Part shown: piece by piece, positions 8,731 through 48,291 of the stretch
Position numbering within the stretch: position 1 is the stretch's first letter
Layout of the letters: every line of letters starts with the position of its first letter
Source of the DNA: Trueperaceae bacterium
GTDB lineage: Bacteria; Deinococcota; Deinococci; Deinococcales; Trueperaceae
NCBI GenBank assembly: GCA_034520945.1
Contig: JAXHNB010000005.1
Span: forward strand, 64,001-128,000
Length of the DNA stretch: 64,000 bases
Direction: 5' to 3'
Program-made: the position numbers and the translations under genes
Notes under the pieces: model-generated
The model's input: the letters and a program-made list of their open reading frames with translations, nothing else
What the model was told of the DNA's origin: nothing
Database searches by the model: none

Positions 8731-12405
<3,675 letters not shown>

Positions 12406-12487
12406 GGGACCCTCCCTGGGCGCCGGCGCAGGACGTTTCGCGCCGGGAGCCCTCATGGTACCCGCGTCCAAGTGCGCCAGCCGCGCG

Positions 12488-13444
12488 TCAGTCGACGTCG
12501 CGCCGCACGAACGTCACGCTCAGGATCACGCCGAACAGCACCGCGTACCCCGCCATCACGGCGGCGGCGTGGGGCAGCGAGAGGCTCGCCCCGAGCAGTT
12601 GGGCGAGGTCGCCCTGCCCGCCCTCCGCGACCGATTCGCCGAACGTGCGCATCAGATCGCCCACCGGCGTCTTGGCGGGGAGGAGGAGGTTGTCCGTGAA
12701 GAAGTAGCGGGGCAGGTTCTCGAACGTCTCCCGCAGCCGCAACGCCTGGAACGGCGCGTTCAGGCGGGTCAGCGGCTCGAAGCCCACCGTGAGGCGCCAC
12801 ACGCGGTACAAGCCCTCCAGCAGCGCGGGCAGGAAGAAGGTCAGCACGATGCCGAGCGCCACGTTGCGGACCAGGAAGATCAGCAGCGACGCGAACAGCG
12901 TCGCGGCGGTGAGCAGCGCCCACTGCAGCGCGTACAAACCCAGCAGCGAACCCCACGCGCCGGTGAAGTCGGTGGGGAGGAACGCCGTGCCGATCGTGCC
13001 CGCCAGGGCGGCGCACGCCATGGCCCCGGCCAGCATCACGCCCAGCAGCACCTGGATCGCCACGATCTTGCCCCACAGGACCGCCAGCCGGGACGGTTGG
13101 GCCACCAGCGTGGTCTTCCACATGTTCAGGCTGCGCTCCTCGCCGAAAAACACGGCGGCCAGCAGCGCCACCACGATCATGTAGTAGGTGGGGCTGAGGA
13201 ACGCCGGTCCGGTGAGCGCGATTCGGGTCAGCCCGTACGGCGAGGCGAACGCCTGCACGATCGACGCGACGGTGGTGCCGGTCTCGTCCACGAACGAGCC
13301 GGCCAGGTTGGTCTGCACCACCTGCCCCAGCACCAGCGCGAGCACCGGCAGCACGATCCACCACAGGCCGGCCAACACGTAGGTGCGTCGCTTGCGCCGG
13401 GCCTTGAACAGCTCGGCCGCGACGACGCGGAACAGCGCGGTCAC
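12488..13444 (-). CDS. ABC-2 type transporter permease
   Basis: N-terminal AELFK motif, GEE...WKTTL, six TM segments, C-terminal FVRRDVD; coupled to the ATPase gene. Confidence 0.85.
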
Positions 13445-33219: not shown

Positions 33220-34038
33220 GTGTTGGCCAAACGGATCATTCCCTGCCTCGACGTGCACGCCGGACGGGTGACGCGCGGGCAACAGTTCGGACGCGCGGAG
33301 GCGGGCGAGCTGGACGACGTCGGCGACCCGGTCGCGTTGGCGTTGCGCTACGACGCCCAGGAGGCGGACGAGTTGGTGCTGTACGACATCACCGCCACGG
33401 CAGAGGGGCGCGCGGCGATCCTCGACGTCGCCACCCGCGTGGCGGAGCGCTGCTTCATGCCGCTCACCATCGGCGGCGGGGTGCGGACGCTGGAGGACGT
33501 GCGCGCCTTGTTCCTGGCCGGGGCGGACAAGGTGTCGATCAACTCCGGGGCGGTGGCCGATCCGGAGCTGATCCGGCGGGCCTCCGACCACTTCGGCGCG
33601 CAAGCGGTGGTGCTGTCCATCGACGTGAAGCGGCGCGGCTCGGGGGACGGCTGGGACGTGTACGTCGCCGGCGGGCGCAAGGAGACGGGACTGGACGCGG
33701 TTGCCTGGGCCACGCGCGGGCAGGAACTGGGTGCCGGCGAGATCGTGCTGAACTCGATCGACGCCGACGGCATGAAGACCGGCTACGACCTGGGGGCGAC
33801 GCGGACGGTGGCCCGCGCGGTCGACCTGCCGGTGGTGGCCTCGGGCGGCGCAGGTCACAGTGATCACCTGCGCGACGTGCTGCAGCTCGGCGAGGCGGAC
33901 GCCGCGCTGGCGGCCGGCATCTTCCACCGCGGCGAGACGACGGTCGGCGACGTCAAGCGGCGCCTGGCCGCCACCGGCGTGCCGGTCCGGCTGGACGCGC
34001 TGGATCACCTCGACGCGAAGGGAGCACCGACGGCATGA
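33220..34038 (+). CDS. hisF: Imidazole glycerol phosphate synthase cyclase subunit
   Basis: Motifs [62 protein letters not shown] 7 nt after TATCGT. Confidence 0.96.
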
Positions 34039-35195
34039 GCGACGACGCGCCTGAGACGCTGCACCCCGAGACGCTGGCCGTCCACGGCGGCCAGCGGCCC
34101 GACCCCGCCACCGGCGCCGTCGTGCCGCCCATTCATCCTGCGACGACCTTCGTCCGCAATGATGACGGCCAGCCGCGGGCCGGCTGGACGTACGCACGCA
34201 GCGGCAACCCCACCCGTGAGGCGCTGGAGGCGGCGTTGACGGCGCTGCAACCCGGCGCCGGCGCGTGCGCGGCGTTCGCGTCCGGCTCGGCGGCCGCAGC
34301 GGCGGTGATGCGGATCGTCGAGCCGGGCGGGCACGTGCTGCTGCCCCTCGACATGTACCACGGCATTCGGACGCTGCTGCAAGGGGAACACCGCCGCTGG
34401 GGCCTGACGGTCGCCTTCGTCGACATGGCGGACGCAGGCGCCGTCCAGGAGGCCCTCACGGACGGCGCCTCGCTGGTATGGATCGAGACGCCGTCCAACC
34501 CTCGCCTGCTGCTGACCGACGTGCGCGCGGTGGCCGAGGCGGCGCACGCGGCCGGCGCCCGGGTGGCGGTCGACGCCACCTGGACGCCGCCGCCGCTGCA
34601 GGACCCGTTCGCCCTGAACGCCGACCTGGTGGTCCATGCCACCACCAAGTACCTGGCCGGCCACAGCGACGTGGTGGGGGGTGCCGTGCTGGCCCGGTCC
34701 GAAGAGGACGCCGCCTTCGCGCGGGTGCGCTGGCTGCAGCGGCACGAGGGCGCGGTGCCGTCGCCGTTCGACGCCTGGTTGACGCTGCGGGGGCTCCGGA
34801 CGCTGGCGTTGCGCATGCGCGCGGCCTGCGCGGGCGCGGAACGCATCGCGGCCTTCCTGGCGGAGCACGACGCGGTGCTGGAGGTGCACCACCCCAGCCT
34901 GGCCACCCACCCGCAACACGAGCTGGCGCGCGCGCAGATGACGTCGTTCGGGGCGATGCTCAGCGTGCGGGTGCGGGGTGGCGCCGAGGCGGCGGCGCGC
35001 GTCGCGTCGGCCACCCGTTTGTTCACGCGCGCCACCAGCCTGGGCGGGGTGGAGAGCCTGATCGAGCACCGCGCGCCCGTGGAGGGGCCGGACACCGCCA
35101 CGCCGCCCGACCTGCTCCGCATCTCGGTCGGGATCGAGCATCCCGACGACCTGATCCGCGACCTGGCGCGGGCGCTCGGGCGCGTGGACGGGTAG
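34035..35195 (+). CDS. Cystathionine gamma-synthase/lyase family PLP enzyme
   Basis: Motifs [31 protein letters not shown] (PLP Lys), [17 protein letters not shown]. Confidence 0.9.
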
Positions 35196-37023: not shown

Positions 37024-38187
37024 TCAGCGCACGAACAGGTCGCGCGGGAAGTCGGTGATGCGCTCGCCCCCCTCGGCGGTGACGCGGATGGTTTCGGTGC
37101 ACCCGATCCCCCCCTTGCCCGGCATCTGGACCCAGGGCAGAAGGTGAAACGTCATGTTCTCCTGCAGGGGACGGGTCTCGCCGGGCTTCATGCTGAGGAT
37201 CTGCCCCTCGCCCCAGTCGGGCGGGACGGCGATGCCGACGGAGTAGGCCACCCGCGACGCCTGCATGCCGCCGAAGCCGAACTCGGCGATCACCTGACGC
37301 GCGCGGTGGTCGACGTCGCCGGCGGGGACGCCCGGCGCGACCGTGGCCAGGGCGGCGTCGAAGGCCGCCTGGACGGCTTCGAACGCGTGGCGGGCGGCCG
37401 GGTCGGGATCGCCGATCATCACGGTGCGCATCATGGGGGCGTGGTAGCGGCTGCGGCAGCCGGAGATCTCGAGGAACAGGGTGTCCTGGGCTTCCAGGCG
37501 GCGTCCGGACCAGGTGGCATGGCCGATGGCGCCCCGCTCGCCGGAGGCGACGAACGGCACGATGGAGGGCCACTCGCTCCCGGCGCGGATCATGGCGGAC
37601 ATCACCTCCGCCGCCACGTCGTTCTCGGTGCTGCCGGCCCGGGCCGCGTCGACGCCGGCCTGCATGCCGGCCTCGGTGGTGCGTGCCGCGGCGCGGATGC
37701 GCTCGATCTCCAGGGGCGACTTGACGAGGCGGCCGGCCTCGACCAGCCCGGAGCCGTCGATCCAGTCGACCTCGGGGAGCAAGGAGAACAGGCGGTCCTG
37801 CTGGGCTGCCGTGAAGAACCAGCCGTCGCGTTCGTACCCGATCCGGCCCCGGTCGAGCCCCATGGCGGTCAGCTCGCCGACGAGGATCTTCATCGGATCC
37901 TGGTCGTCGCGGTAGCCGACGTTGTGCTCCGGCTCGATCCAGCTGAGGGCGTCCATGCCGCTGATCTCGAGCAGGCGCGACACCGCGGTGGGCTCGCCGT
38001 ACAGCGGCACGATCAGGCCCTGCCACCAGTAGTGCCCCGGGCTCTCGAAACCGGTGAGGTAGGTGATGTTCTCGGGCGTGGTGGTGATCATGGCAATGAC
38101 GCCGACGTCGTCCATGCGCTCGCGCAAGGCGCCTAAGCGAGCCTGGTACTCGCGGGTGGGGAAGGGAAGCCTGTCGTGGTCTCGCAT
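37024..38187 (-). CDS. Divergent ectoine hydrolase-like M24-fold enzyme (EutD/DoeA-like)
   Basis: Motifs LPF..EY..RL, H.TW, EI.G...RYHAP..RT, PPDWGE, MTFH, FPR.LFV as in DoeA/EutD. The standard M24 metal ligands are absent. Transcribed divergently from the ehu/eut operon. Confidence 0.75.
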   Translation of the reverse strand: MRDHDRLPFPTREYQARLGALRERMDDVGVIAMITTTPENITYLTGFESPGHYWWQGLIVPLYGEPTAVSRLLEISGMDALSWIEPEHNVGYRDDQDPMKILVGELTAMGLDRGRIGYERDGWFFTAAQQDRLFSLLPEVDWIDGSGLVEAGRLVKSPLEIERIRAAARTTEAGMQAGVDAARAGSTENDVAAEVMSAMIRAGSEWPSIVPFVASGERGAIGHATWSGRRLEAQDTLFLEISGCRSRYHAPMMRTVMIGDPDPAARHAFEAVQAAFDAALATVAPGVPAGDVDHRARQVIAEFGFGGMQASRVAYSVGIAVPPDWGEGQILSMKPGETRPLQENMTFHLLPWVQMPGKGGIGCTETIRVTAEGGERITDFPRDLFVR

Positions 38188-38235
38188 GTATGGACTCCCG
38201 TTCGCGGCGGTGCCGAACGTGGTCGGCGCGGCTGG

Positions 38236-38264
38236 TTGACAGGGGCGAGGCGTCCCCGTAGACT
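38236..38264 (+). promoter_or_regulatory. Sigma70-type promoter for the gntR-ehu operon
   Basis: TTGACA (38236-38241), 17-nt spacer, TAGACT (38259-38264). Confidence 0.75.
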
Positions 38265-38281
38265 TCGCACAGGTACGCAAC

Positions 38282-38291
38282 TTGTATACAA
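38282..38291. promoter_or_regulatory. Putative GntR-family operator
   Basis: Perfect palindrome TTGTATACAA matching the GntR TnGT-N-ACnA pattern, in an AT-rich island next to the gntR gene. Confidence 0.7.
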
Positions 38292-38307
38292 CCCCAATAC
38301 GGGTTGC

Positions 38308-38337
38308 ATTCTAAGTCGCCCGCCGCGCGCGGGTCAA
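38308..38337 (-). promoter_or_regulatory. Sigma70-type promoter for the eutD-like gene
   Basis: On the minus strand: TTGACC (38337-38332), 18-nt spacer, TAGAAT (38313-38308). Confidence 0.65.
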
Positions 38338-38395
38338 TCGTTCACGCCGGCGTGGCCACAACGCACGCCTACGCGCCTCCCTCGAAAGGAGCTCC

Positions 38396-39070
38396 GTGCC
38401 AGAAGGCCGAGACGTGGGCTCGATCTACCGGCTGCTACGCGAGCGGATCGCGTTGCTCGACTACCCGCCGGGCACCCTCCTGAGCGAGAACCGTCTGGCG
38501 CGCGAATTCGGCGTCAGCCGTACCCCCATCCGGCGCGTGCTGCACCGGTTGGAGTTCGACGGGCTGGTCAGCGTCGAGCGGGGCGTCGGCACGCTGGTGA
38601 CGTCGGTCGACGTGCGCTACCTGAAGCAGGTGTACGATCTCAGGTTGGCGCTGACCCACGTGATCGCCGAGCTGGACCCGTCGTTGGTGTCGCAGGACGA
38701 GATCGAACGGCTGCGCCAGCTGCTGACCTCGACCCGGACGCTGGCCGGCACGGGCGACGCCTCCGGCCTGGCCCGCGCGTATCTGTACTTCAACGAGACC
38801 GTCACGCGGGCGATCGGCAACGAGCCGCTGCGCGAGATCGCCGACCGGCTGTTCTACCTCACCCAACGGACCTGGTTGGAGGCGCTGCCCGCCTTGGACT
38901 GGGACCACGAGGTCGAGACCGTCTGCAACGAGATCGAGGCCACCGCCGACGCGCTCGAACAGGGCGACATGCGCGCCGTCGCCGACGTGCGCCGGCACTA
39001 CATGATCGACTGCATCCATCGCGTCGGCACGTACCTTGGTACGTTCGACGCCACGAGCGAACCGTCATGA
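38396..39070 (+). CDS. GntR family transcriptional regulator (wHTH plus FCD-like domain)
   Basis: IY..LRERI....YPPG..LSE..LA.EFGVSRTPIR.VL.RLE.DGLV....GVGTLV. Confidence 0.92.
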   Translation: MPEGRDVGSIYRLLRERIALLDYPPGTLLSENRLAREFGVSRTPIRRVLHRLEFDGLVSVERGVGTLVTSVDVRYLKQVYDLRLALTHVIAELDPSLVSQDEIERLRQLLTSTRTLAGTGDASGLARAYLYFNETVTRAIGNEPLREIADRLFYLTQRTWLEALPALDWDHEVETVCNEIEATADALEQGDMRAVADVRRHYMIDCIHRVGTYLGTFDATSEPS

Positions 39071-39122
39071 ACCGCCCGTCCACACCCCGATGGGGACCGG
39101 ACGCGGCCAAAGGAGGAACGAC

Positions 39123-40334
39123 GTGAACGAACGAGATCGGATCGGAACGGCGACGCGCGCCGTGTGGGGCGGCGAGGAGGTCGCCCGCGCGGGTGGGGCG
39201 ACCCAGGTGCCGGTGGTGCACAGCGTGTCGTTCGGCTACGACGACCTGGAGCACTGGCGCGACGTCGCCCTGGAGCGCACCGAGGGCCATATCTACAGCC
39301 GCAACACCAACCCCACCGTTGCGGTGTTCGAGGAGAAGATCCGGCTCCTGGAGGGGGCCGAGGCCGCCACCAGCTTCGCCACCGGGATGGCGGCGATCAG
39401 CAACACGCTGTTCACGCTGCTGGCCCCCGGCGACCGCGTCGTGTCGGTCAAGGACACCTACGGCGGCACCAGCCGACTGTTCCTGGACTGGGTGCCCAAG
39501 TTCGGCATCGACGTCGCACTGTGCGACACCGGCGACACCGAGGCCCTGCTACGCGAGATCGACGCGGGGTGCACCGTGCTGTACCTCGAGACCCCCACCA
39601 ACCCGACCTGCAAGATCCTGGACATCCGGCGCTTGGCGCAGCGGGCCAAGGACCGTGGCGCCACGGTGGTGGTCGACAACACCTTCGCCACCCCCGTCAA
39701 TCAGAACCCCCTGGCGTTGGGCGCCGACCTGGTGATCCACAGCGCGACGAAGTACCTCGGCGGCCACGCCGATGCCCTCGGCGGCGCCGTGTGCGGCGAT
39801 CAGGAACTCGTGATGCGCATCTTTCGCTTCCGCGAGGTGAACGGCGCCACGCTGCACCCCGAGGCCGCCTACCTGCTGCTGCGCGGCATGAAGACGCTCG
39901 ACCTGCGCATCGAGCGCCAGAACCACAACGCGATGGAGATCGCCCGGCACTTGGACGGGCACGACTTCGTGGAGCGGGTGTTCTACCCCGGCCTGCCCGC
40001 GCACCCCGGGCACGACGTCGCCCGCGGCCAGATGCGGGGCTTTGGCGGCATGCTGTCGTTTCAGCTGCCCGGCGACTTCGACACCGTCCGTACCTTCCTC
40101 CCCCGCCTCCGCTTCGCGCACCGCGCTGCCAACCTCGGCGCGGTCGAGACGGTGGTGGCACCGCCCCGCACCGGCAGCCACGTCGAGCTGACCGAAGAGG
40201 AGCGCGCCTCGCTGGGCATCCCCGAGACGCTGGTCCGCTACTCCGCCGGCATCGAGGACGTGAACGATCTGATCGGCGATCTCGACCAGGCGCTGGCCCA
40301 CGCCGCCGAGCGGCACCCCAGGCCCACGTCATGA
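39123..40334 (+). CDS. Cystathionine gamma-synthase family PLP enzyme (ectoine cluster)
   Basis: Motifs IYSRNTNPT, FATGMAAI, YGG, LETPTNP, VDNTFATP, HSATKYLGGHAD (PLP Lys), NLGAVET; SD AAGGAGG. Confidence 0.9.
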   Translation: MNERDRIGTATRAVWGGEEVARAGGATQVPVVHSVSFGYDDLEHWRDVALERTEGHIYSRNTNPTVAVFEEKIRLLEGAEAATSFATGMAAISNTLFTLLAPGDRVVSVKDTYGGTSRLFLDWVPKFGIDVALCDTGDTEALLREIDAGCTVLYLETPTNPTCKILDIRRLAQRAKDRGATVVVDNTFATPVNQNPLALGADLVIHSATKYLGGHADALGGAVCGDQELVMRIFRFREVNGATLHPEAAYLLLRGMKTLDLRIERQNHNAMEIARHLDGHDFVERVFYPGLPAHPGHDVARGQMRGFGGMLSFQLPGDFDTVRTFLPRLRFAHRAANLGAVETVVAPPRTGSHVELTEEERASLGIPETLVRYSAGIEDVNDLIGDLDQALAHAAERHPRPTS

Positions 40335-41380
40335 ACCTCTTCCGCGTCGCACTGGTCGGCTTCGGCACCGTCGGGCAGGGTTTTGCGCGGATCCTGCGGG
40401 ACCATGGCGAGGCCCTGCGCAGCCGTCACGGACTGAATGTTCGCATCACCGCGGTGTCCGACGTACGTCGCGGCAGCCTGCACGATCCCGAAGGCTTGGA
40501 TCTGGACGCCCTGCTGGCCGCGGTCGAGGCGGGCGGCACGCTGGCGGGCGTGTCCGCACGCGACCGCGACTGGGACGCGCTCACCACCATTCAGGGCGCC
40601 GAGGCCGACGTGATGGCCGAGCTGGCCTTCACCGACCTCGACAGCGGCGAACCGGCCCTCACGCACGTGCGTGCCGCCCTGACGCGCGGCCTGCACGTGA
40701 TCACCACCAACAAGGGACCGATCGCGCTGGCCTACCCGGAGCTGGCCGACCTGGCGCGGCGCCACGGCGTCCGCCTCGAGAGCGAAGGCACCGTGATGAG
40801 CGGTACGCCCGCCCTGCACCTCGGCACCGAACTCCTCGCCGTCGCCAACGTCACCCGCATCGAAGGGGTCCTGAACGGCACCAGCAACTACGTACTGACG
40901 CGCATGGAGGCCGGCCTCGACTTCGCCGCCGCGCTCGGGGAAGCGCAGGCGAAGGGGTACGCCGAAGCGGATCCCAGCGGCGACGTGGACGGGATCGACG
41001 CGGCGGGCAAGGTGGTGATCCTCGCCAACCGCGTGATGGGGGCCGAGCTGCGCATGGCCGACGTCCCCCGCGAGGGCATTCGCGCGCTCACCCCCGAACG
41101 GGTCGCCGAGGCGGCCGAGGTTCATGAACGCTGGAAGCTGCTCGGGAGGGTCCGGCGCGACGCGGACGGCAGCGTGCGCGCCGACGTCGCCCCGCGCCGC
41201 CTGTCCGCCACGCATCCCCTGGCCAGCGTCTCAGGCGCCAGCAACGCCGTGACCTTCACCACCGACCTGCTGGGCGACGTGACGCTGGTCGGCCCGGGCG
41301 CGGGCCGGCTCGAGACCGGCTACGCCCTGATCGAGGACCTGCTGGCGCTCCAGCGGCACCATGGAGGGACGCGGGCATGA
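40331..41380 (+). CDS. Homoserine dehydrogenase (no ACT domain)
   Basis: Motifs GFGTVG, HVITTNKGP, EGTVMSGTP, GVLNGTSNY, GYAEADPSGDVDGIDAAGK, GPGAG..TG. ATGA overlaps at both ends. Confidence 0.92.
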   Translation: MNLFRVALVGFGTVGQGFARILRDHGEALRSRHGLNVRITAVSDVRRGSLHDPEGLDLDALLAAVEAGGTLAGVSARDRDWDALTTIQGAEADVMAELAFTDLDSGEPALTHVRAALTRGLHVITTNKGPIALAYPELADLARRHGVRLESEGTVMSGTPALHLGTELLAVANVTRIEGVLNGTSNYVLTRMEAGLDFAAALGEAQAKGYAEADPSGDVDGIDAAGKVVILANRVMGAELRMADVPREGIRALTPERVAEAAEVHERWKLLGRVRRDADGSVRADVAPRRLSATHPLASVSGASNAVTFTTDLLGDVTLVGPGAGRLETGYALIEDLLALQRHHGGTRA

Positions 41381-42795
41381 AGATGCTGCTCGAAGATCGC
41401 TGGGTGGACCGCAATGAGCGCATCGAGGTGCGGAACCCCGAGAGCGCCGCGGTCGTGGACACGGTGCCGCGCGGGGACGCGGCCGACGCCGAGCGCGCGT
41501 TGACGCACGCCGAGAGCGGCGCGCGGGCCGCCGGCGCCCTGCCGGTGCACGAGCGCATGCGCATCCTTCACGCCGCGGCCGACGCCGTGCTGGACACGCA
41601 CGAGACGTTCGCGCGCCGGATCGCGACCGAGGGGATCAAGACCATCCGCGAGGCGCGCCGCGAGGCGACGCGGTGCGCCGACACGCTGCGCCTGTCCGCC
41701 GAGGAGGCCCGCCGCGCGCACGGCGAGACGGTGCCGTTCGACCAGCGGCCCGGCTCCGAGGGGCGCGTCGGGTACTGGCGTCCCGTCCCGGTCGGCATCG
41801 TGGTGGCCATCACGCCGTTCAACGACCCGCTGAACCTGGTCGCGCACAAGCTGGGGCCCGCCTTGGCGGCCGGCAACGCCGTGGTGCTCAAACCCGACTC
41901 GCGCACGCCCCTCTCCGCCCTGGCGTTGGCGGAGGTCCTGTTCGAGGCGGGGCTCCCAGACGGCATGCTGCAGGTGATCACCGGCCCCGGCTCGGACATC
42001 GGGCCGACTCTGGTCGGCGACCGGCGCGTGCGGACCGTATCGTTCACCGGCGGGCGCGACACCGGCGAGCGGATCGCCCGGCAGGCCGGCCTGAAGAAGC
42101 TCAGCATGGAGCTCGGCTCCAACGCGCCGGCCCTGGTCATGGAGGACGCCGACCTCGACGTGGCGGTGCCCGCCTGCGTCGCCGGCGCCTTCGCCGCGGC
42201 GGGCCAGAACTGCCTGCACGTTCAGCGCGTGTTCGTGCACCGCGCCTGCGCGGACGCGTTCACGGCCCGATTCGTGGAGGGCGCCCGGGCGGTGCGGACC
42301 GGCCCCAAGCTCGACGAGGCCACCGACATGGGGCCCATGATCGACGAGGAGGCCGCCCGGCGCGTCGAGGCCCTGGTGCAGGACGCCGCCGGCGCCGGGG
42401 CCGAGCTGCTGCAGGGTGGGACGCGCGAGGGCAGCGTCATGGCGCCCACCGTGATGGCCGGGGTACCGCCCACGCACGAGCTGGCGCGCGACGAGGTGTA
42501 CGGCCCCGTGACCCTGATCGAGACGTTCCGTGATCCCGCCGAGGCGGTCGCGCGCGCCAACGACGTGGACTTCGGACTCCAGGCGGGGGTGTTCACCCGC
42601 GACCTCGCCGCCGCGCACCGCCTGGCCGACGCACTCCGCTACGGAGGCGTTATGATCAACGACAGCAGCGACTATCGCATCGACGCCATGCCGTTCGGCG
42701 GATTCAAGGGATCCGGCCTGGGGCGGGAGGGCGTACGTTTCGCGATGGAGGCCATGACCGAACCGAAGCTGGTGTGCTTCACGCTGTCCCCTTGA
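41377..42795 (+). CDS. NAD(P)-dependent aldehyde dehydrogenase
   Basis: Motifs ITPFNDP, VLKP, SFTGG, ELGSNAP (Glu), AGQNC (catalytic Cys), [19 protein letters not shown]. Confidence 0.93.
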
Positions 42796-42844
42796 CCGGC
42801 CTGGCGGGCGCTCGAGGCACACCCACTCCGCGAAAGGGCTCGAC

Positions 42845-43681
42845 GTGAGCGATTCCCACGCTTCCCCCGTGACCGCCCCCGAGCGCGCGAAGACGTCCGC
42901 GCCCGACGGCCGTCCGCCCATGATCGTGTTCGACAAGGTCCGCAAGGCGTTCGGCGACCTGGTGGTGCTCGACGACCTCGACTTCCAAGCGGCCGAGAAC
43001 GAGAAGGTCGCCATCATCGGGCCCAGCGGCTCGGGCAAGACCACCATCCTCCGCGTGCTGATGACGCTGGTGCGGCCCGACCGCGGTCACGTGTACGTGG
43101 ACGGCCAGTCCCTGTGGCACATGAACGTGGGCGGCAAGGAGGTGCCCGCCACCGAGAAGCACCTTCACGCCATCCGCAGCGACATCGGCATGGTGTTCCA
43201 GCACTTCAACCTGTTCCCGAACATGAACGTGCTGCGCAACGTCACCGAGGCGCCGGTGCACGTGCGCGGCGTCCCGAAGGCCGAGGCCCGCCAGCGCGGC
43301 CTGGACCTGCTCGAGATGGTGGGGCTCAGCGACAAGGCCGACGCGTTTCCCGAACAGCTCTCTGGCGGCCAGAAGCAGCGTGTCGCGATCGCACGGGCGT
43401 TGGCGATGGAACCGAAGGTGATGCTGTTCGACGAGGTCACCAGCGCGCTGGACCCAGAACTGATCGGCGAGGTGCTGGCCATCCTGCGCAAGCTGGCGAC
43501 CGAGACCCAGATGACGATGCTGATCGTCACGCACGAGATGGGCTTCGCCAAGGACGTCGCCGACCGCGTGATCTTCTTCGACGCTGGGCAGGTGGCGGAG
43601 GAGGGCCCGCCCGACAAGATGTTCACCCAGCCGGAGAACCCTCGCACCCAGGAGTTCCTGCGGGCGGTGCTTCAGCACTAG
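42845..43681 (+). CDS. ehuA: Ectoine/hydroxyectoine ABC transporter ATP-binding protein
   Basis: Motifs [57 protein letters not shown]; in context with ehuBCD. Confidence 0.88.
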
Positions 43682-44006
43682 GCACGGCCGTGCCGGAGCT
43701 GAAGGGTGAACCGCTCTTCATCGCGATTGGACGCCGGGGCCGGTTCGCGCTATCCTGGGTCACGCCGGTGTCCGCAGGCGCTCGACCTTGCCGCGCCACG
43801 AGCGTCGCGCCCCATGGAACCATTCCCCCCAGGTGCGCGACGTCCTCGCGGAGAGGCATGCGTGAGGCGCACGCCACGGAGCGGCCCCCCCGGGCTGCCT
43901 CCGCGCACGTCACCGGCGCTGTCCCGCCGATGGACGGGCCGGCCGACATACGCGCAGCGGCGACCCGCCGCCTGCGTTTCGCCCAGCAAGATCGGAGGTT
44001 CGACAC

Positions 44007-44867
44007 ATGAACAGCGGATTCGCACGCCTTCTCGCCGCCACGCTGCTGCTCGGCATGATCATGAGCTTCGGCTTCGCCCAGCGCTCCCTGTCCGAGATTC
44101 AGGAGAGCGGCCAGGTCACCGTCGTCACCGCCAACGAGATCCCCTACGGGTGGATCGACGACGACGGCGTGCCGCACGGCATCGCCCCCGAAACCGCCGT
44201 GGCGGTGCTCGAGAGCATGGGCATCGACGACATCGAGTGGACCGTCACCGAGTTCGGCTCTCTGATCCCCAGCATCCTGGCCGGCCGGGCCGACATGACG
44301 GCCGCCAGCATGGCGATCCTGCCGGAGCGCTGTGAGCAGGTCGACTACGCCCGCCCGAACTCCAGCTACGGGGAAGGCTTCCTGGTCGAAGCCGGCAACC
44401 CCAAGGACATCCACAGCTACGAGGACTTCCTCGAGAACCCCGACCTGACCATGGGCATCGTGTCCGGCGCGGACCAGCTCGAGTTCGCTCAGGAGATCGG
44501 CATTCCCGGCGGCCAGCTGTCGTTCCTGAACGCCAACGCCGACGCGCCCTCGGCCGTCGTCACCGGCCGCATCGACGCCTACGCCGCGACCAGCGCGACG
44601 GTCGCCGAACTGGCGGCCAGCTCCGATCGCGTGGAGGGCGCCGATCCGTTCGAAGCCCCCATCATCGGCGGCGATCCGGTCCGCAGCTGGGGCAGCTTCA
44701 ACTTCCACCCCGAGGCGGACGCCTTCCGCACAGCCTTCGACGAGGCGCTGGGCGAGTTCCAGCAATCCGACGAGTGGCGCGAGATTCACCTGAGCCACGG
44801 CTTCACCGAGTCGGACGTGAACTCCGCCCTGGCGGCGAGCACCGAGGAGCTCTGCAGCCCCGAGTGA
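44007..44867 (+). CDS. ehuB: Ectoine/hydroxyectoine ABC transporter substrate-binding protein
   Basis: Signal peptide; motifs ANE.PY, EFGSLIP, I.PERCEQV, GNPK, C-terminal ELC; SD GGAGG. Confidence 0.88.
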   Translation: MNSGFARLLAATLLLGMIMSFGFAQRSLSEIQESGQVTVVTANEIPYGWIDDDGVPHGIAPETAVAVLESMGIDDIEWTVTEFGSLIPSILAGRADMTAASMAILPERCEQVDYARPNSSYGEGFLVEAGNPKDIHSYEDFLENPDLTMGIVSGADQLEFAQEIGIPGGQLSFLNANADAPSAVVTGRIDAYAATSATVAELAASSDRVEGADPFEAPIIGGDPVRSWGSFNFHPEADAFRTAFDEALGEFQQSDEWREIHLSHGFTESDVNSALAASTEELCSPE

Positions 44868-44874
44868 CCCGCCC

Positions 44875-44904
44875 GCAGGCCCGCTTCGGCGGGCCTGCTT
44901 TTCT
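44875..44904 (+). terminator. Intrinsic terminator/stabilising hairpin after ehuB
   Basis: GCAGGCCCGC-TTCG-GCGGGCCTGC followed by TTTTCT. Confidence 0.8.
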
Positions 44905-44965
44905 ATCTTGGTTCCCCGCCGTATGACGTTCGGCGCTCCGCCGGACCGCGACGCCTGGAGGCCTC

Positions 44966-45637
44966 GTGGAAGACCTGCAGCAAATGCTCACCCCCTTGAT
45001 GCGGGGTACGGTCGTGACGCTGCAACTCGCGCTGATCTCGACCGTGTTCGGCGGCATCCTCTCCTTCGCCGCCGGCATCGGCAAGCTGTCGCAGAACGGG
45101 TTCGTCCGGGCGGCGTCGGTCGCGTACATCGAGATCTTCCGCGGCACCTCGCTGCTGGTCCAGATGTTCTGGCTGTTCTTCGCGTTGCCGATCATCGGCG
45201 TCCGGTTCGAGCCCATGACCGCCGGCATTCTGGCTCTCTCGCTCAACATCGGGGCGTACGGCGCCGAGGTGGTCCGCGGTGCCATCCAGTCCGTGCCCAC
45301 CGGCCAGTACGAAGCGGCCGTCGCCGTGAACTTCACGCGGCGCTTCACCCTCTGGAACGTGGTGCTGCCCCAGGCACTGGTCGAGATGATGCCGCCGTTC
45401 GGCAACCTGGTCGTCCAGAACCTGAAGGACACCGCGCTGGTGTCGCTGATCACCCTGGGTGACCTGACCTTTCGCGCCCAGAACTACCGCAACCTCACGC
45501 TCGAGACCATTCCCGTGTTCACCGCCACGCTGTTGATCTACTTTGCGCTGGCGCTGGTGCTCATGGGGGTCATGCGCTGGCTCGAAGGGTGGATCGCGCG
45601 GCGCGTCGGCGTGGTGCACGGCAGGGCGAGCGCCTGA
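44966..45637 (+). CDS. ehuC: Ectoine ABC transporter permease
   Basis: Motifs YIEIFRGTSLLVQMFWLFFALP, LNIGAYGAEVVRGA, GQYEAA, LPQA...M.PPFGN. Confidence 0.88.
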   Translation: MEDLQQMLTPLMRGTVVTLQLALISTVFGGILSFAAGIGKLSQNGFVRAASVAYIEIFRGTSLLVQMFWLFFALPIIGVRFEPMTAGILALSLNIGAYGAEVVRGAIQSVPTGQYEAAVAVNFTRRFTLWNVVLPQALVEMMPPFGNLVVQNLKDTALVSLITLGDLTFRAQNYRNLTLETIPVFTATLLIYFALALVLMGVMRWLEGWIARRVGVVHGRASA

Positions 45638-46329
45638 TGCTGTTCGGCATCGAGTGGGACACCAGCACCACCCTAAGCTTCGCCACCACGATCTTCCCGA
45701 TCCTGTTGCGCGGGTTGTGGGTCACCCTCCAGGCGACCGTGCTGGGCTTCGCCATCGCCCTGGTAGTGGGCCTGATCCTGGCGCTGCTCCGCATGGCGCC
45801 CAGCCGCCTCGTGTCGTGGCCCGTCGCCGTGTTCCTGGAGTTCGTGCGCGACACGCCGCTGCTGGTGCAGCTGTACTTTTTGTTCTTCGTGCTGCCCGAG
45901 ATCGGCATCGTGCTGCCGGCGTTCCTGACCGGCGCGATCGCGCTGGGCATCCAGTACTGCGGCTACACCGCCGAGGTGTACCGCGCCGGCATCGAGGCCA
46001 TCCCGCGCGGCCAGTGGGAGGCCGCCACCGCCCTCAACATGCCCGCCCGCCTGACCTACCGGCACGTGGTGGTCCCGCAGGCGATCCCTCGGATCGTCCC
46101 GGCGCTGGGCAACTACCTCGTCTCCATGCTCAAGGACACCGCCATCCTGTCCGCCATCACCGTCCTGGAGATGCTGTCGGTCGCCAAGATCATCGGCGAC
46201 CGCACCTTCCGCTACTTCACGCCCATCACCATGGTTGGCGCGCTGTTCCTGATCGTCACGCTGGCCTCGGCCTGGCTGGTCCGCATCATCGAACACCGCC
46301 TGCCGAAGACCGGCATTCCGCTGCGTTGA
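45637..46329 (+). CDS. ehuD: Ectoine ABC transporter permease
   Basis: Motifs EFVRDTPLLVQLYFLFFVLP, YTAEVYRAGI, GQWEAA.ALN, PALGNYLVSMLKDT. Confidence 0.88.
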   Translation: MLFGIEWDTSTTLSFATTIFPILLRGLWVTLQATVLGFAIALVVGLILALLRMAPSRLVSWPVAVFLEFVRDTPLLVQLYFLFFVLPEIGIVLPAFLTGAIALGIQYCGYTAEVYRAGIEAIPRGQWEAATALNMPARLTYRHVVVPQAIPRIVPALGNYLVSMLKDTAILSAITVLEMLSVAKIIGDRTFRYFTPITMVGALFLIVTLASAWLVRIIEHRLPKTGIPLR

Positions 46330-46333
46330 ATGC

Positions 46334-47341
46334 ATGCATGATCCCCTGCCCCCCTCGGCCCGGGACGTGTGGCGCGCACGCGCCCGCATCCAAGGGCTGA
46401 TTCGGCGCACCCCCCTGCTGCCGGCCCCCGAGTTCGCTGCGCACGACGGCGCTGCGCCGGCCGTCTGGATCAAGGACGAGACGCGGCAGCCCACCGGCGC
46501 GTTCAAGATCCGTGGCGCCGCCAGCGCGTTGCGCGCCTTGCCGGACGACGTCGTGGCGCGCGGCGTGGTCGCCGTCTCCACCGGCAATCACGGCCGGGCC
46601 GTCGCGCACGTGGCGCGCGCCCTCGGCGTCCCCGCCCGCGTCTACGTCTCCTCGCGCGTGCCCCCCGACAAGCTGGACGCCCTCCGCGCCGCCGGCGCCC
46701 GGGTCGAGGTGCACGGCGATTCGCAGGACCAGGCCGAGGACGCCGCCCGCGCCCGCGTGGAGACGGACGGTGGCACGCTGATCCCGCCGTTCGACCACGT
46801 AGGCGTCATCGCCGGCCAAGGCACCCTCGGCCTCGAACTGCTGGAGGACCTGCCGGACCTTGACACCGTCCTCGCGCCCCTCTCCGGCGGCGGCCTGATC
46901 GCCGGCGTGGCGCGCGCCGTCAAGGCCGTCGCCCCCGACGTGCGCGTGGTGGGCGTATCGATGGAGGCCGGCGCCGCCATGCACGCCAGCCTGTCGGCGG
47001 GCCGCATCGTCGAGACGCCGGAGGCCGACACGCTGGCCGACAGCCTGCAAGGGGGGCTCGGGCGAAGCAACCGCTACACCTTCGCGCTGGTGCGCGCGCT
47101 GGTCGACGACGTGCTCTTGGTCGGCGAACGCGCGCTGGCCGAGGCGATGCGCCACGCCTTCCACCACCACCGGCTGGTCCTGGAGGGAGGCGGCGCCGCG
47201 GCCCTGGCGGCGCTGACCTCCGGCGCGACCCACGTGCGCGGGCCCACAGCCGTGATCGCGTCGGGATCCAACGTCGGCGCAGGGGCGTTCGCGCGGGTGC
47301 TGAGCGGCCGCACGCCTGCTGGAGAGGAACATCGCGCGTGA
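46334..47341 (+). CDS. eutB: Hydroxyectoine utilisation dehydratase (threonine dehydratase-like)
   Basis: Motifs QPTGAFKIRGA (PLP Lys), STGNHGRAVA, DSQD.A, IPPFD, PLSGGGL, TLADSL.GG, SGSN; ehu context. Confidence 0.85.
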   Translation: MHDPLPPSARDVWRARARIQGLIRRTPLLPAPEFAAHDGAAPAVWIKDETRQPTGAFKIRGAASALRALPDDVVARGVVAVSTGNHGRAVAHVARALGVPARVYVSSRVPPDKLDALRAAGARVEVHGDSQDQAEDAARARVETDGGTLIPPFDHVGVIAGQGTLGLELLEDLPDLDTVLAPLSGGGLIAGVARAVKAVAPDVRVVGVSMEAGAAMHASLSAGRIVETPEADTLADSLQGGLGRSNRYTFALVRALVDDVLLVGERALAEAMRHAFHHHRLVLEGGGAAALAALTSGATHVRGPTAVIASGSNVGAGAFARVLSGRTPAGEEHRA

Positions 47342-48291
47342 ATCAGGTGCGGGTGCTGGCCAAGGACGAACTGGTTCGCCAGGCGCCGCTGACGCTCGAA
47401 GTGGCGGACGAGATCGCCGACGGGTTCGAGCGCCTGGCCGCCGGCGAGGTGCGGCAGCCCCCGGTGACGTCATTGGAGATCCCCGAGGCAGAGGGCGAGC
47501 TGGACGTCAAGACGGCGTACGTGCCCGGCTGGGACTCGTTCTGCGTCAAGTTGTCCACGGGCTTCTTCCGCAACCCGGAGCTGGGCCTCCCCTCGGCCTC
47601 GGGCCTGATGGTGGTCCTGTCGGCCGAGACGGGCCGCCCCTTGGCGGTGCTGCTGGACGACGGCTACCTCACCGAACTCCGCACCGCCGCCGCCGGCGCG
47701 GTCGCCGCCGACGCCTTGGCGCGGCCCGACGCCCGCCACGTCGCCATCCTCGGGGCCGGTGCGCAGGCCCGCTGGCAGCTGGACGCGCTCCGCCTGGTGC
47801 GCAACGTGACGCACGTGGACGTGTGGGCGCGCCGCCCCGCCGCGGCCAAAGCCTTCGCCCGGGCCGCGCGCAAGGAAACCGGCCTGATCGTCACGCCCAG
47901 CACGAGCGTCGCAGACGCGGTGGCCGACGCCGACGTCGTCGTCACGGCCACGCCTGCGCGGGAGCCGCTCCTCTACGCCGACATGCTCCCCCCCGGCGTG
48001 CACGTCACCGCCATGGGGGCCGACGCCGCCGGCAAGCGCGAACTGGCCGCGGACGTGCTGCGCGCGGCCGACGTGCTGGTGGTCGACGCGCTGGCGCAGA
48101 GCCGCACCCTCGGCGAGCTGCAGCACGCCGACGACGCGACGGCCGCCAGGGCGATCCTGCTCGGCGACGTGCTGGCGGGCGAGGCCCCCGGCCGGCGCAC
48201 GGATGCCGACGTCACCGTCTGCGACCTGACGGGCACCGGCGTGCAGGACACGGTCGTCGCCCGCTGGGTGTTGGCCCGACTGGAGGGGTAG
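47338..48291 (+). CDS. eutC: Ectoine utilisation cyclodeaminase/mu-crystallin family protein
   Basis: Motifs GELDVKTAYVPG, STGFF.NP..GLPS, GYLT..RTAAAG, GAGAQA, AMGAD, DLTGTGVQD. Confidence 0.87.
   Translation: MNQVRVLAKDELVRQAPLTLEVADEIADGFERLAAGEVRQPPVTSLEIPEAEGELDVKTAYVPGWDSFCVKLSTGFFRNPELGLPSASGLMVVLSAETGRPLAVLLDDGYLTELRTAAAGAVAADALARPDARHVAILGAGAQARWQLDALRLVRNVTHVDVWARRPAAAKAFARAARKETGLIVTPSTSVADAVADADVVVTATPAREPLLYADMLPPGVHVTAMGADAAGKRELAADVLRAADVLVVDALAQSRTLGELQHADDATAARAILLGDVLAGEAPGRRTDADVTVCDLTGTGVQDTVVARWVLARLEG

Follow-up and report, generated by a model that had tools for sequence, protein, structure and literature searches.

Ectoines are abundant osmolytes and form a nutrient pool in saline soils and seawater. 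The only characterised route for their breakdown is, to our knowledge, the proteobacterial one. Its canonical systems are DoeABCD of Halomonas and EutABCDE-Ssd-Atf, with EnuR/AsnC, of Ruegeria and Sinorhizobium. Here, we analysed a 64,000-nucleotide window (contig C5, C5:64001-128000; G+C ~70%) from the genome of a Trueperaceae bacterium (3.47 Mb in 10 contigs, 97% complete), in which open reading frame (ORF) calling and family scans delimited a cassette of 11 genes at positions 37024-48291. They encode a DoeA/EutD-like hydrolase of the M24 family, a GntR/FCD-family regulator, a Cys/Met-family pyridoxal phosphate (PLP) enzyme, a homoserine dehydrogenase (HD), an aldehyde dehydrogenase (ALDH), the importer EhuABCD, and EutB- and EutC-like proteins. 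With a little better than even confidence, we propose that this cassette degrades ectoines to aspartate through homoserine, and that the PLP enzyme supplies the homoserine.

A path of this kind has been described for canavanine and reconstituted with purified enzymes: a Cys/Met gamma-lyase yields homoserine, an NAD+-specific HD oxidises it to aspartate semialdehyde, and an ALDH completes the conversion to aspartate (Hauth et al. 2022, PMC9533460). AnHSD, an enzyme without an ACT domain that is assigned to the 'PRK 06270' class of HDs, accepts only NAD+ when it oxidises homoserine, and its reverse reaction could not be detected (Liang et al. 2021, bioRxiv). The preliminary description of the locus had suggested that its HD runs oxidatively, and this is probably so, as the characterised members of the PRK06270 class, to which it belongs, work on homoserine in the oxidative direction alone. 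Identity to an HD-ALDH pair encoded in a plasmid cluster of Rhizobium acidisoli is 50% for the window HD and 51% for the window ALDH, and the gene order of that cluster (AsnC / HD-ALDH-ABC-dapA-PLP-aspartase) is the one published by Hauth et al. for Rhizobiales. The PLP enzymes of the two loci share 38% identity, and the Rhizobium enzyme sits on a long branch outside the 43-row clade to which the window enzyme belongs. These values point to a recognisable homoserine-to-aspartate module, HD plus ALDH, combined with a different member of the PLP superfamily. The window ALDH is a candidate for the step from aspartate semialdehyde to aspartate, a substrate predicted from its sequence. The genome encodes two HDs, and the one outside the cluster (C5:328299) is 41% identical to the cluster HD over 226 aligned residues; an alignment of the NAD-specificity motif gave no clear separation of catabolic from housekeeping HDs.

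In the proposed path, the 11 genes would form a self-contained, GntR-controlled cassette whose EhuABCD importer takes up ectoine and hydroxyectoine. The DoeA-like M24 enzyme would open the ring to N-acetyl-2,4-diaminobutyrate. The PLP enzyme, a member of the PRK08249 clade, would take the place of the 2,4-diaminobutyrate (DABA) transaminase and form homoserine by gamma-elimination and addition of water. It would thereby remove the gamma-nitrogen substituent from an intermediate with a free alpha-amino group, most likely DABA and less likely N-gamma-acetyl-DABA. The PRK06270 dehydrogenase would oxidise homoserine to aspartate semialdehyde, which the ALDH would oxidise to aspartate, and intermediates derived from hydroxyectoine would enter this path through EutB and EutC. 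All of the enzymatic steps, the identity of the PLP enzyme's product and the removal of the acetyl group are predictions from sequence; deacetylation in the window's family may fall to a candidate housekeeping amidohydrolase or to the hydrolase itself. We favour the homoserine route because HD is linked exclusively to the PLP gene, because the PLP gene and class-III aminotransferases are complementary in distribution, because the PLP, HD and ALDH genes are translationally coupled, because one related genome has swapped PLP and HD for a EutE-like gene and a transaminase, and because of the enzymology of the PRK06270 class. The coupling consists of ATGA overlaps at 40331-40334 (PLP and HD genes) and 41377-41380 (HD and ALDH genes), which are real, as first described.

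The PLP enzyme scores 377 bits against the methionine gamma-lyase (MGL) model TIGR01328 (cut-off 549.7), and an MGL (6lxu, E 1.7e-94) is the nearest solved structure. In a phylogenetic tree the window enzyme falls within a strongly supported (100*) orthologue clade of 43 rows. We aligned 76 clade members, 44 of them ectoine-linked and 32 stand-alone, over 442 columns. All 76 share an invariant YGGT motif, where the aligned 6lxu reads YGCT; we take the cysteine of the latter to be the MGL hallmark Cys116. The arginine of a PPRTGSH loop was dropped as a specificity clue, since only 39 of the 76 members have it. The sequence marks the enzyme as a candidate gamma-lyase giving homoserine.

Family scans in and beside the cassette bore out the preliminary description in finding no eutE, atf, eutA, asnC or MocR-type gene there, and profile searches of the whole genome gave a similar result for the deacetylase and the transaminase. 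The best EutE matches reach 66-79 bits (cut-off 402.7), in unrelated contexts; no DoeB2-type M20 protein was matched; and the best Dat-family transaminase match reaches 286 bits (cut-off 401.6), scoring higher on aspartate- and 4-aminobutyrate-transaminase family models. No EctC was found in the genome; therefore, the organism is an ectoine consumer and not a producer. EutA had no match in the genome either, in a search that is uninformative because its control matched no genome. AsnC and EnuR are absent from the cluster, with no genome-wide search made for either.

Several candidates for the missing enzymes were rejected. Three AstE/AspA-family genes were discarded as EutE on account of their scores of 66-79 bits and unrelated contexts, and two of them lie in a duplicated block of contig C2. 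The near-identical copies of this block (C2:57738-64417 and C2:74832-81262) each hold ORFs of 202, 1208 and 429 aa and an AstE/AspA-family gene (76-79 bits to EutE), and are either a real duplication or an assembly artefact. The best Dat-family match (C2:103951-105156) has one TGA flagged inside it, and an ORF scan shows an open 425-aa frame at 103960-105237. A class-III aminotransferase of 499 aa, encoded at 24075-25574 on the minus strand of the window, was not supported as Atf: it lies 12 kb from the cassette with unrelated genes between, and stands beside a family-5 binding-protein ABC system. It has a long N-terminal extension and matches PigE-, ArgD- and putrescine-aminotransferase-like models best, in each case far under the cut-off.

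The same gene set recurs in a Trueperaceae metagenome-assembled genome (MAG; L016), the closest public relative, and on the metagenome contigs L095, L096 and L098. In L016 the genes from M24 to eutC sit between two blocks that are contiguous on contig C6 of the window's own genome, and in both the window and L098 the cassette adjoins glpX. The cassette moves as a unit and occupies two different chromosomal sites in relatives. The arrangement is not due to chance, and the trio of PLP, HD and ALDH belongs to the ectoine cassette. An 'amidase' beside the cassette in L016 and L099 was rejected as the missing deacetylase or acetamidase: it is GatA (528 > 481) and therefore only a flank, and in the window's own genome GatA stays in its own syntenic block, at C6.

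The tie between the trio and ectoine genes, which the preliminary description had drawn from a single locus, was also seen in a survey of the window's family. Among 20 loci fetched around a hydrolase of the window's type, 18 carry the PLP gene and 11, L214 among them, the PLP, HD and ALDH genes together; M20 and class-III aminotransferase genes occur in none of the 20, and L210 has the hydrolase alone. One locus (L195, genome G222) reads M24-EutE-like / GntR-ALDH-EhuABCD-EutB-EutC, with neither PLP nor HD. Its EutE-like protein is a full-length match at 321 bits, and its ALDH is retained at 65% identity. Across 111 family genomes, in which gene presence was counted, G222 is the only one with a EutE-like gene. 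It also encodes a Dat-family transaminase (444 > 401.6), which is not EctB because G222 has no EctC, and it lacks both a PRK08249 orthologue (362 < 600) and a PRK06270 HD (192 < 373). A Dat-family protein above the cut-off is absent from four other non-producer genomes with the PLP cassette, the window's own counted. G222 is a single case, and it fits the earlier prediction: PLP and HD stand where EutE and the transaminase stand, with the ALDH shared. The loci L222 and L223 have a G+C content of 43-47%, and their genomes (G310 and G187) are assigned to the family of the window, which is at 70% G+C. In L223 a PucR gene diverges from PLP, and genes for a peptidase S41, HD and ALDH are also present.

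Beyond the family, a survey seeded with the PLP enzyme gave 41 orthologous copies from many phyla (at least 57% identity, the window counted), with an EutD/M24 homologue nearby in 15 of the 41 loci. These show three architectures. Seven loci of halophilic Bacillota read EutD-(EutC)-PLP-M20-HD-ALDH, the EutC gene being bracketed, with PucR and EutB. In Azoarcus, Denitromonas and an Acidimicrobiales MAG, a true EutE (592 > 403) and EutD neighbour the PLP gene, and the Trueperaceae type is without any deacetylase. A second survey, seeded with the hydrolase, covered 80 EutD/M24 loci from metagenomes, many of them short and interrelated, so we report counts and no statistics. EutE is present in 34 of these, a class-III aminotransferase in 23, the PLP orthologue in five (three Trueperaceae-type cassettes and two PLP-EutD-EutE loci) and HD in three. 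No locus of the 80 combines the PLP orthologue with a class-III aminotransferase, and all three HD genes accompany the PLP orthologue, with none in the 75 loci that are without it. In three further loci, L110 among them, M24 is followed immediately downstream by a distant Cys/Met enzyme (38-39% identity).

The preliminary description had expected the PLP gene to replace both canonical enzymes, and thus to avoid loci with either. For the class-III transaminases this exclusivity holds across the EutD-seeded loci, and the G222 swap agrees with it. For the deacetylase it fails outside the family: an M20 or EutE candidate accompanies PLP in 11 of the 15 M24-linked loci, as does EutE in two further metagenome loci, and true EutE lies beside PLP in L025, L034, L046, L142 and L146 (the last two from metagenomes). 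This bears on the strict form of the bypass, in which the M24 enzyme would give N-gamma-acetyl-DABA and the PLP enzyme would eliminate acetamide from it to leave homoserine, so that neither deacetylase nor transaminase is needed. We regard this form as unlikely. It alone explains a mobile unit free of a deacetylase without outside help, and the unit does move in that state; the EutE-like gene is confined to one of the 111 family genomes, one without PLP and HD; the window's own genome has no DoeB2-type M20; and gamma-ADABA is reported from Ruegeria cells growing on ectoine (PMC8739950). Against this, the Bacillota orthologue (62-69% identity) adjoins an M20 N-acyl-amino-acid amidohydrolase and five loci adjoin true EutE, no residue sets apart the PLP enzymes of deacetylase-less cassettes, genomes with PLP alone lack an ectoine hydrolase to supply the substrate, and the cassette has no link to an enzyme that would use acetamide, the adjacent 'amidase' being GatA. 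We rank DABA above N-gamma-acetyl-DABA as the substrate because deacetylases co-occur with the PLP gene elsewhere and because the PLP sequences do not differ.

Of the bypass as first proposed, the replacement of the transaminase and the formation of homoserine are therefore better supported than an action on N-gamma-acetyl-DABA, which is weakened by the lack of a distinguishing residue and by stand-alone PLP genes in hydrolase-less genomes. We also regard it as unlikely that PRK08249 enzymes perform an undescribed PLP reaction, gamma-elimination of a nitrogen leaving group (acetamide from N-gamma-acetyl-DABA or ammonia from DABA) followed by hydration to homoserine, that gives the Trueperaceae-type cassettes a three-enzyme route with neither deacetylase nor transaminase, from ectoine via acetyl-DABA, homoserine and aspartate semialdehyde to aspartate. 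Such a reaction would also account for ectoine degradation by Gram-positive and Deinococcota consumers that have no eutE and atf.

A number of observations weigh against the homoserine route itself. No biochemistry exists for any PRK08249 member, and the closest solved relatives are methionine gamma-lyases, whose normal product is given as 2-oxobutyrate (Hauth 2022, PMC9533460). The PLP enzyme might thus convert DABA or a related compound to 2-oxobutyrate and ammonia by ordinary alpha,gamma-elimination, with HD and ALDH as an accessory module that it does not feed. PLP occurs without HD or ALDH in seven of the 20 family loci, and both are missing from all five EutD-EutE-PLP loci. Some PLP loci contain genes for processing 2-oxoacids: a dihydrolipoyl dehydrogenase (Lpd) with an N-terminal lipoyl domain follows directly after PLP in L025 and L034, the loci of Azoarcus and Denitromonas, and in the Acidimicrobiales MAG (L046) Lpd lies ~5 kb from PLP (within 6.5 kb), with a biotin carboxylase nearby. 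The locus L110 reads M24-GntR-PLP-M20-TRAP, with genes for a phosphotransacylase and for a subunit of a 2-oxoacid:ferredoxin oxidoreductase on its flanks (8956-18300), an anaerobe-like cluster that suggests an ectoine-like fermentation via 2-oxobutyrate. However, the L110 enzyme is only 38% identical to the window's and falls outside the orthologue clade. The confinement of HD to metagenome loci with the PLP orthologue, the translational coupling of PLP, HD and ALDH, and the joint absence of PLP and HD from G222, where ALDH was kept, likewise argue that HD is fed by the PLP enzyme, and we consider a 2-oxobutyrate lyase quite unlikely. As a separate observation, an E2 acyltransferase lies near the PLP cluster of L034 (11228-18083).

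The stand-alone copies of the PLP gene also count against a dedicated role in ectoine breakdown. Neighbours of 26 of the 41 orthologues are unrelated and not conserved (77 neighbouring proteins scanned), and EutD is absent (E <= 1e-20) from all five searched genomes with a stand-alone PLP gene. Within the family PRK08249 is present in 51 of the 111 genomes, as one copy each, and stands alone in several. Three genomes of the same genus (G127, G235 and G232) read hisIE-glpX-PLP at the window's own locus; the flanks and PLP align to the window at 73-80% nucleotide identity, and the M24-GntR segment and the segment from HD to the aldo-keto reductase are missing. A search for the PRK06270 HD found none in G127, G235 or G147, the last from another genus of the family with PLP alone. 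Ectoine-linked and stand-alone enzymes are interspersed on short branches in the 43-row clade. We also compared the 44 ectoine-linked with the 32 stand-alone sequences for a residue signature and discarded the idea, as no column separates them (largest frequency difference 0.51); 81 of the 442 columns are invariant. Membership of the orthologue clade is not confined to ectoine consumers, and the PLP enzyme has a use of its own and most likely one specificity throughout. Given the stand-alone copies and the lack of separating residues, a general gamma-lyase recruited in place of the transaminase fits better than a dedicated N-gamma-acetyl-DABA lyase.

Taken further, the same observations could mean that the PLP enzyme is a resident general-purpose gamma-lyase, acting for example on methionine or homocysteine, that takes no part in ectoine breakdown, the cassette having assembled around it or the gene merely hitch-hiking. 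The presence of stand-alone orthologues in many phyla and at the same locus in the same genus, the single copy per genome and the lack of context-specific residues would suit such an enzyme, as would the Lrp/AsnC regulators beside some stand-alone copies. Yet the linkage to EutD/M24 arises in three unrelated cluster architectures and several phyla, PLP travels inside the cassette to the second chromosomal site, its distribution is complementary to that of class-III transaminases, and it lies inside the operon, between the regulator and HD. We therefore hold a resident enzyme with no ectoine step to be very unlikely, and retain the homoserine route as the preferred reading.

The first enzyme of that route can be placed more closely. 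The M24 protein matches both ectoine hydrolase models over their full length and below their cut-offs, NF038259 (ectoine_DoeA_2), its best family, at 376 bits (cut-off 575) and TIGR02993 (EutD) at 239 bits (cut-off 613), and among solved structures DoeA (6twj, E 7.8e-55) is the nearest to it. At the five columns that we take to be the metal-ligand positions of Pyrococcus prolidase, it has the residues of DoeA (Glu, Pro, Tyr, hydrophobic, Thr). The full-length matches and the structural neighbour lead us to class it as a DoeA-type enzyme of a separate branch. This type occurs in 38 of 301 sampled genomes of the phylum, all 38 in the window's family (37 of 102 other sampled family members, plus the window's genome). 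The related cassette L214 has a true EutD (695 > 613).

Coordinates of the cassette are collected in Table 1. All genes named in the preliminary description were found in the order and on the strands given, and the one correction concerns the start of the M24 gene, which is most likely ATG 38187 and not TTG 38280. We prefer the former because a start at TTG 38280 would run over the putative promoter and operator; ATG 38187 gives a protein of 387 aa, the length of the model, and a divergent region of 208 bp between M24 and GntR. The palindrome TTGTATACAA in this region occurs once in the 64-kb window. It is conserved exactly in the same intergenic region of L016, L098, L095 and L096 and with one mismatch in L100, a pattern from which we infer that it is the GntR operator of the catabolic operon. 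Orthologues of the regulator keep the same position in the loci of relatives.

Table 1. Features of the ectoine cassette in the window, with model scores in bits (cut-offs follow the > sign or stand in brackets).
Feature	Position	Strand	Basis
DoeA/EutD-like M24 ectoine hydrolase, 387 aa	37024..38187	-	Peptidase_M24 + Creatinase_N; start ATG 38187
Promoter-like element, TTGACA 38236-38241, 17-nt spacer, TAGACT 38259-38264	38236..38264	+	sequence inspection
Palindrome TTGTATACAA, candidate GntR operator	38282..38291	+	after promoter-like element
GntR/FCD-family regulator	38396..39070	+	GntR 65.7, FCD 41.4
Cys/Met-family PLP enzyme, PRK08249 clade, 403 aa	39123..40334	+	Cys_Met_Meta_PP; NF006097 662 > 600
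ACT-less HD, PRK06270 class	40331..41380	+	NF004912 416 > 373
ALDH	41377..42795	+	Aldedh 507
EhuA, ABC ATPase	42845..43681	+	TIGR03005 395 > 345
EhuB, ectoine/hydroxyectoine binding protein	44007..44867	+	TIGR02995 241 > 191
EhuC permease	44966..45637	+	TIGR03004 270 > 197
EhuD permease	45637..46329	+	TIGR03003 314 > 205
EutB-like PLP dehydratase (hydroxyectoine branch)	46334..47341	+	NF005680 390 (413), TIGR02991 350 (413)
EutC-like ornithine-cyclodeaminase-family enzyme	47338..48291	+	NF006141 404 (408), TIGR02992 354 (472)

All four Ehu proteins score above their equivalog cut-offs, which identifies a dedicated ectoine importer. The EutB- and EutC-like proteins are full-length matches just under theirs (390 vs 413; 404 vs 408), and their genes share a GTGA overlap (47338-47341). 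The start codon of the PLP gene is GTG 39123, preceded by AAGGAGG, and that of ehuD is either ATG 45637, which overlaps the ehuC stop in a TGATG junction, or GTG 45589. A G+C-rich hairpin followed by TTTTCT (44868-44905) lies directly after ehuB and before ehuC, and looks like an intra-operon terminator or attenuator of the type that raises the ratio of binding protein to permease. Upstream of the cassette in the window lie hisF, the gene for another Cys/Met enzyme, hisIE and glpX, and downstream lies an aldo-keto reductase gene, none of them related to it. The gene for the second Cys/Met PLP enzyme (34035-35195, plus strand) lies between hisF and hisIE, an arrangement kept in L098 and in the same-genus genomes; the encoded protein matches the PRK07811 cystathionine gamma-synthase model best (425 bits, cut-off 513) and shares 35% identity with the PLP enzyme of the cassette.

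If the homoserine route is correct, it would represent a new PLP activity, a C-N gamma-cleavage with hydration, and would assign a function to a large family, spread over many phyla, that is named no more precisely at NCBI than 'cystathionine gamma-synthase family protein'. It would open a transaminase-independent, NADH-yielding path from DABA to aspartate semialdehyde and correct the 'atf' label in Gram-positive clusters. Consumers in Deinococcota, Bacillota and other groups that are missed by searches for EutE and Atf would become recognisable, and the path could matter for engineering ectoine producers, as a drain to delete.

This gene set is already in print for Bacillales. A putative Gram-positive cluster, 'pucR-eutBCD-atf / abgB-thrA-adh', was presented tentatively, with eutE absent and no mechanism given, and its PLP gene is called a transaminase (Appl Environ Microbiol 2026, PMC13188858). 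It corresponds to the architecture of the seven halophilic Bacillota loci, and since its gene order matches that of L004-L008, its 'atf' appears to be the PRK08249 Cys/Met enzyme. The article's text has no match for 'deinococc', and its supplements may show more taxa. Neither that text nor the titles and abstract openings that we searched propose or test a DABA or acetyl-DABA gamma-lyase or a homoserine route, and within this literature the mechanism is new. As far as can be told, so are the two insertion sites, the exchange of PLP and HD for EutE in G222, the PLP-only alleles at the same locus, the conserved putative operator and the observation that members of the orthologue clade are not restricted to ectoine consumers.

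EutD homologue, PLP, HD and ALDH orthologues are linked in L004-L008, L011 and L015 as they are in the window. Compared with the published Gram-positive cluster, the window's PLP enzyme is 62-69% identical to those of Halobacillus, Salipaludibacillus, Salimicrobium and Shouchella, its HD 45-49% and its ALDH 52-57%, all beside a EutD homologue; in contrast, the window has no M20 (abgB) or PucR gene, and its hydrolase is of another branch. With canonical ectoine catabolism the cassette shares a DoeA/EutD-type hydrolase, the Ehu importer, EutB- and EutC-like genes, an ALDH and a path that likely ends in aspartate. It differs in having no EutE/DoeB, Atf/DoeD, EutA, AsnC or EnuR, a GntR/FCD regulator, a Cys/Met PLP enzyme and catabolic HD instead, and a hydrolase about equally far from EutD and the NCBI DoeA_2 model. 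The NCBIfam pair DoeA_2/DoeB_2 (NF038259, NF038260) supplies the best, full-length model for this hydrolase, although the score is well under its cut-off and the M20 partner DoeB_2 is unmatched genome-wide; our literature search turned up no paper using the name DoeB2.

The fold, PLP lysine, Tyr-x-Arg and C-terminal Arg motifs of methionine gamma-lyase (6lxu, 1gc0) align with the PLP enzyme over its full length, whereas the window enzyme has glycine where 6lxu has cysteine, a sub-cut-off MGL score, and R-E, A-A-N-L-G and T-N-P-T motifs that are its clade's own. The canavanine gamma-lyase pathway likewise has a Cys/Met gamma-lyase, a PRK06270-class HD and an ALDH leading to aspartate, beside an ABC importer. 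The cassette differs from it in lacking a guanidine exporter, dapA and aspartase and in a PLP enzyme that is not orthologous to canavanine gamma-lyase, and its substrate would carry a nitrogen rather than an oxygen leaving group.

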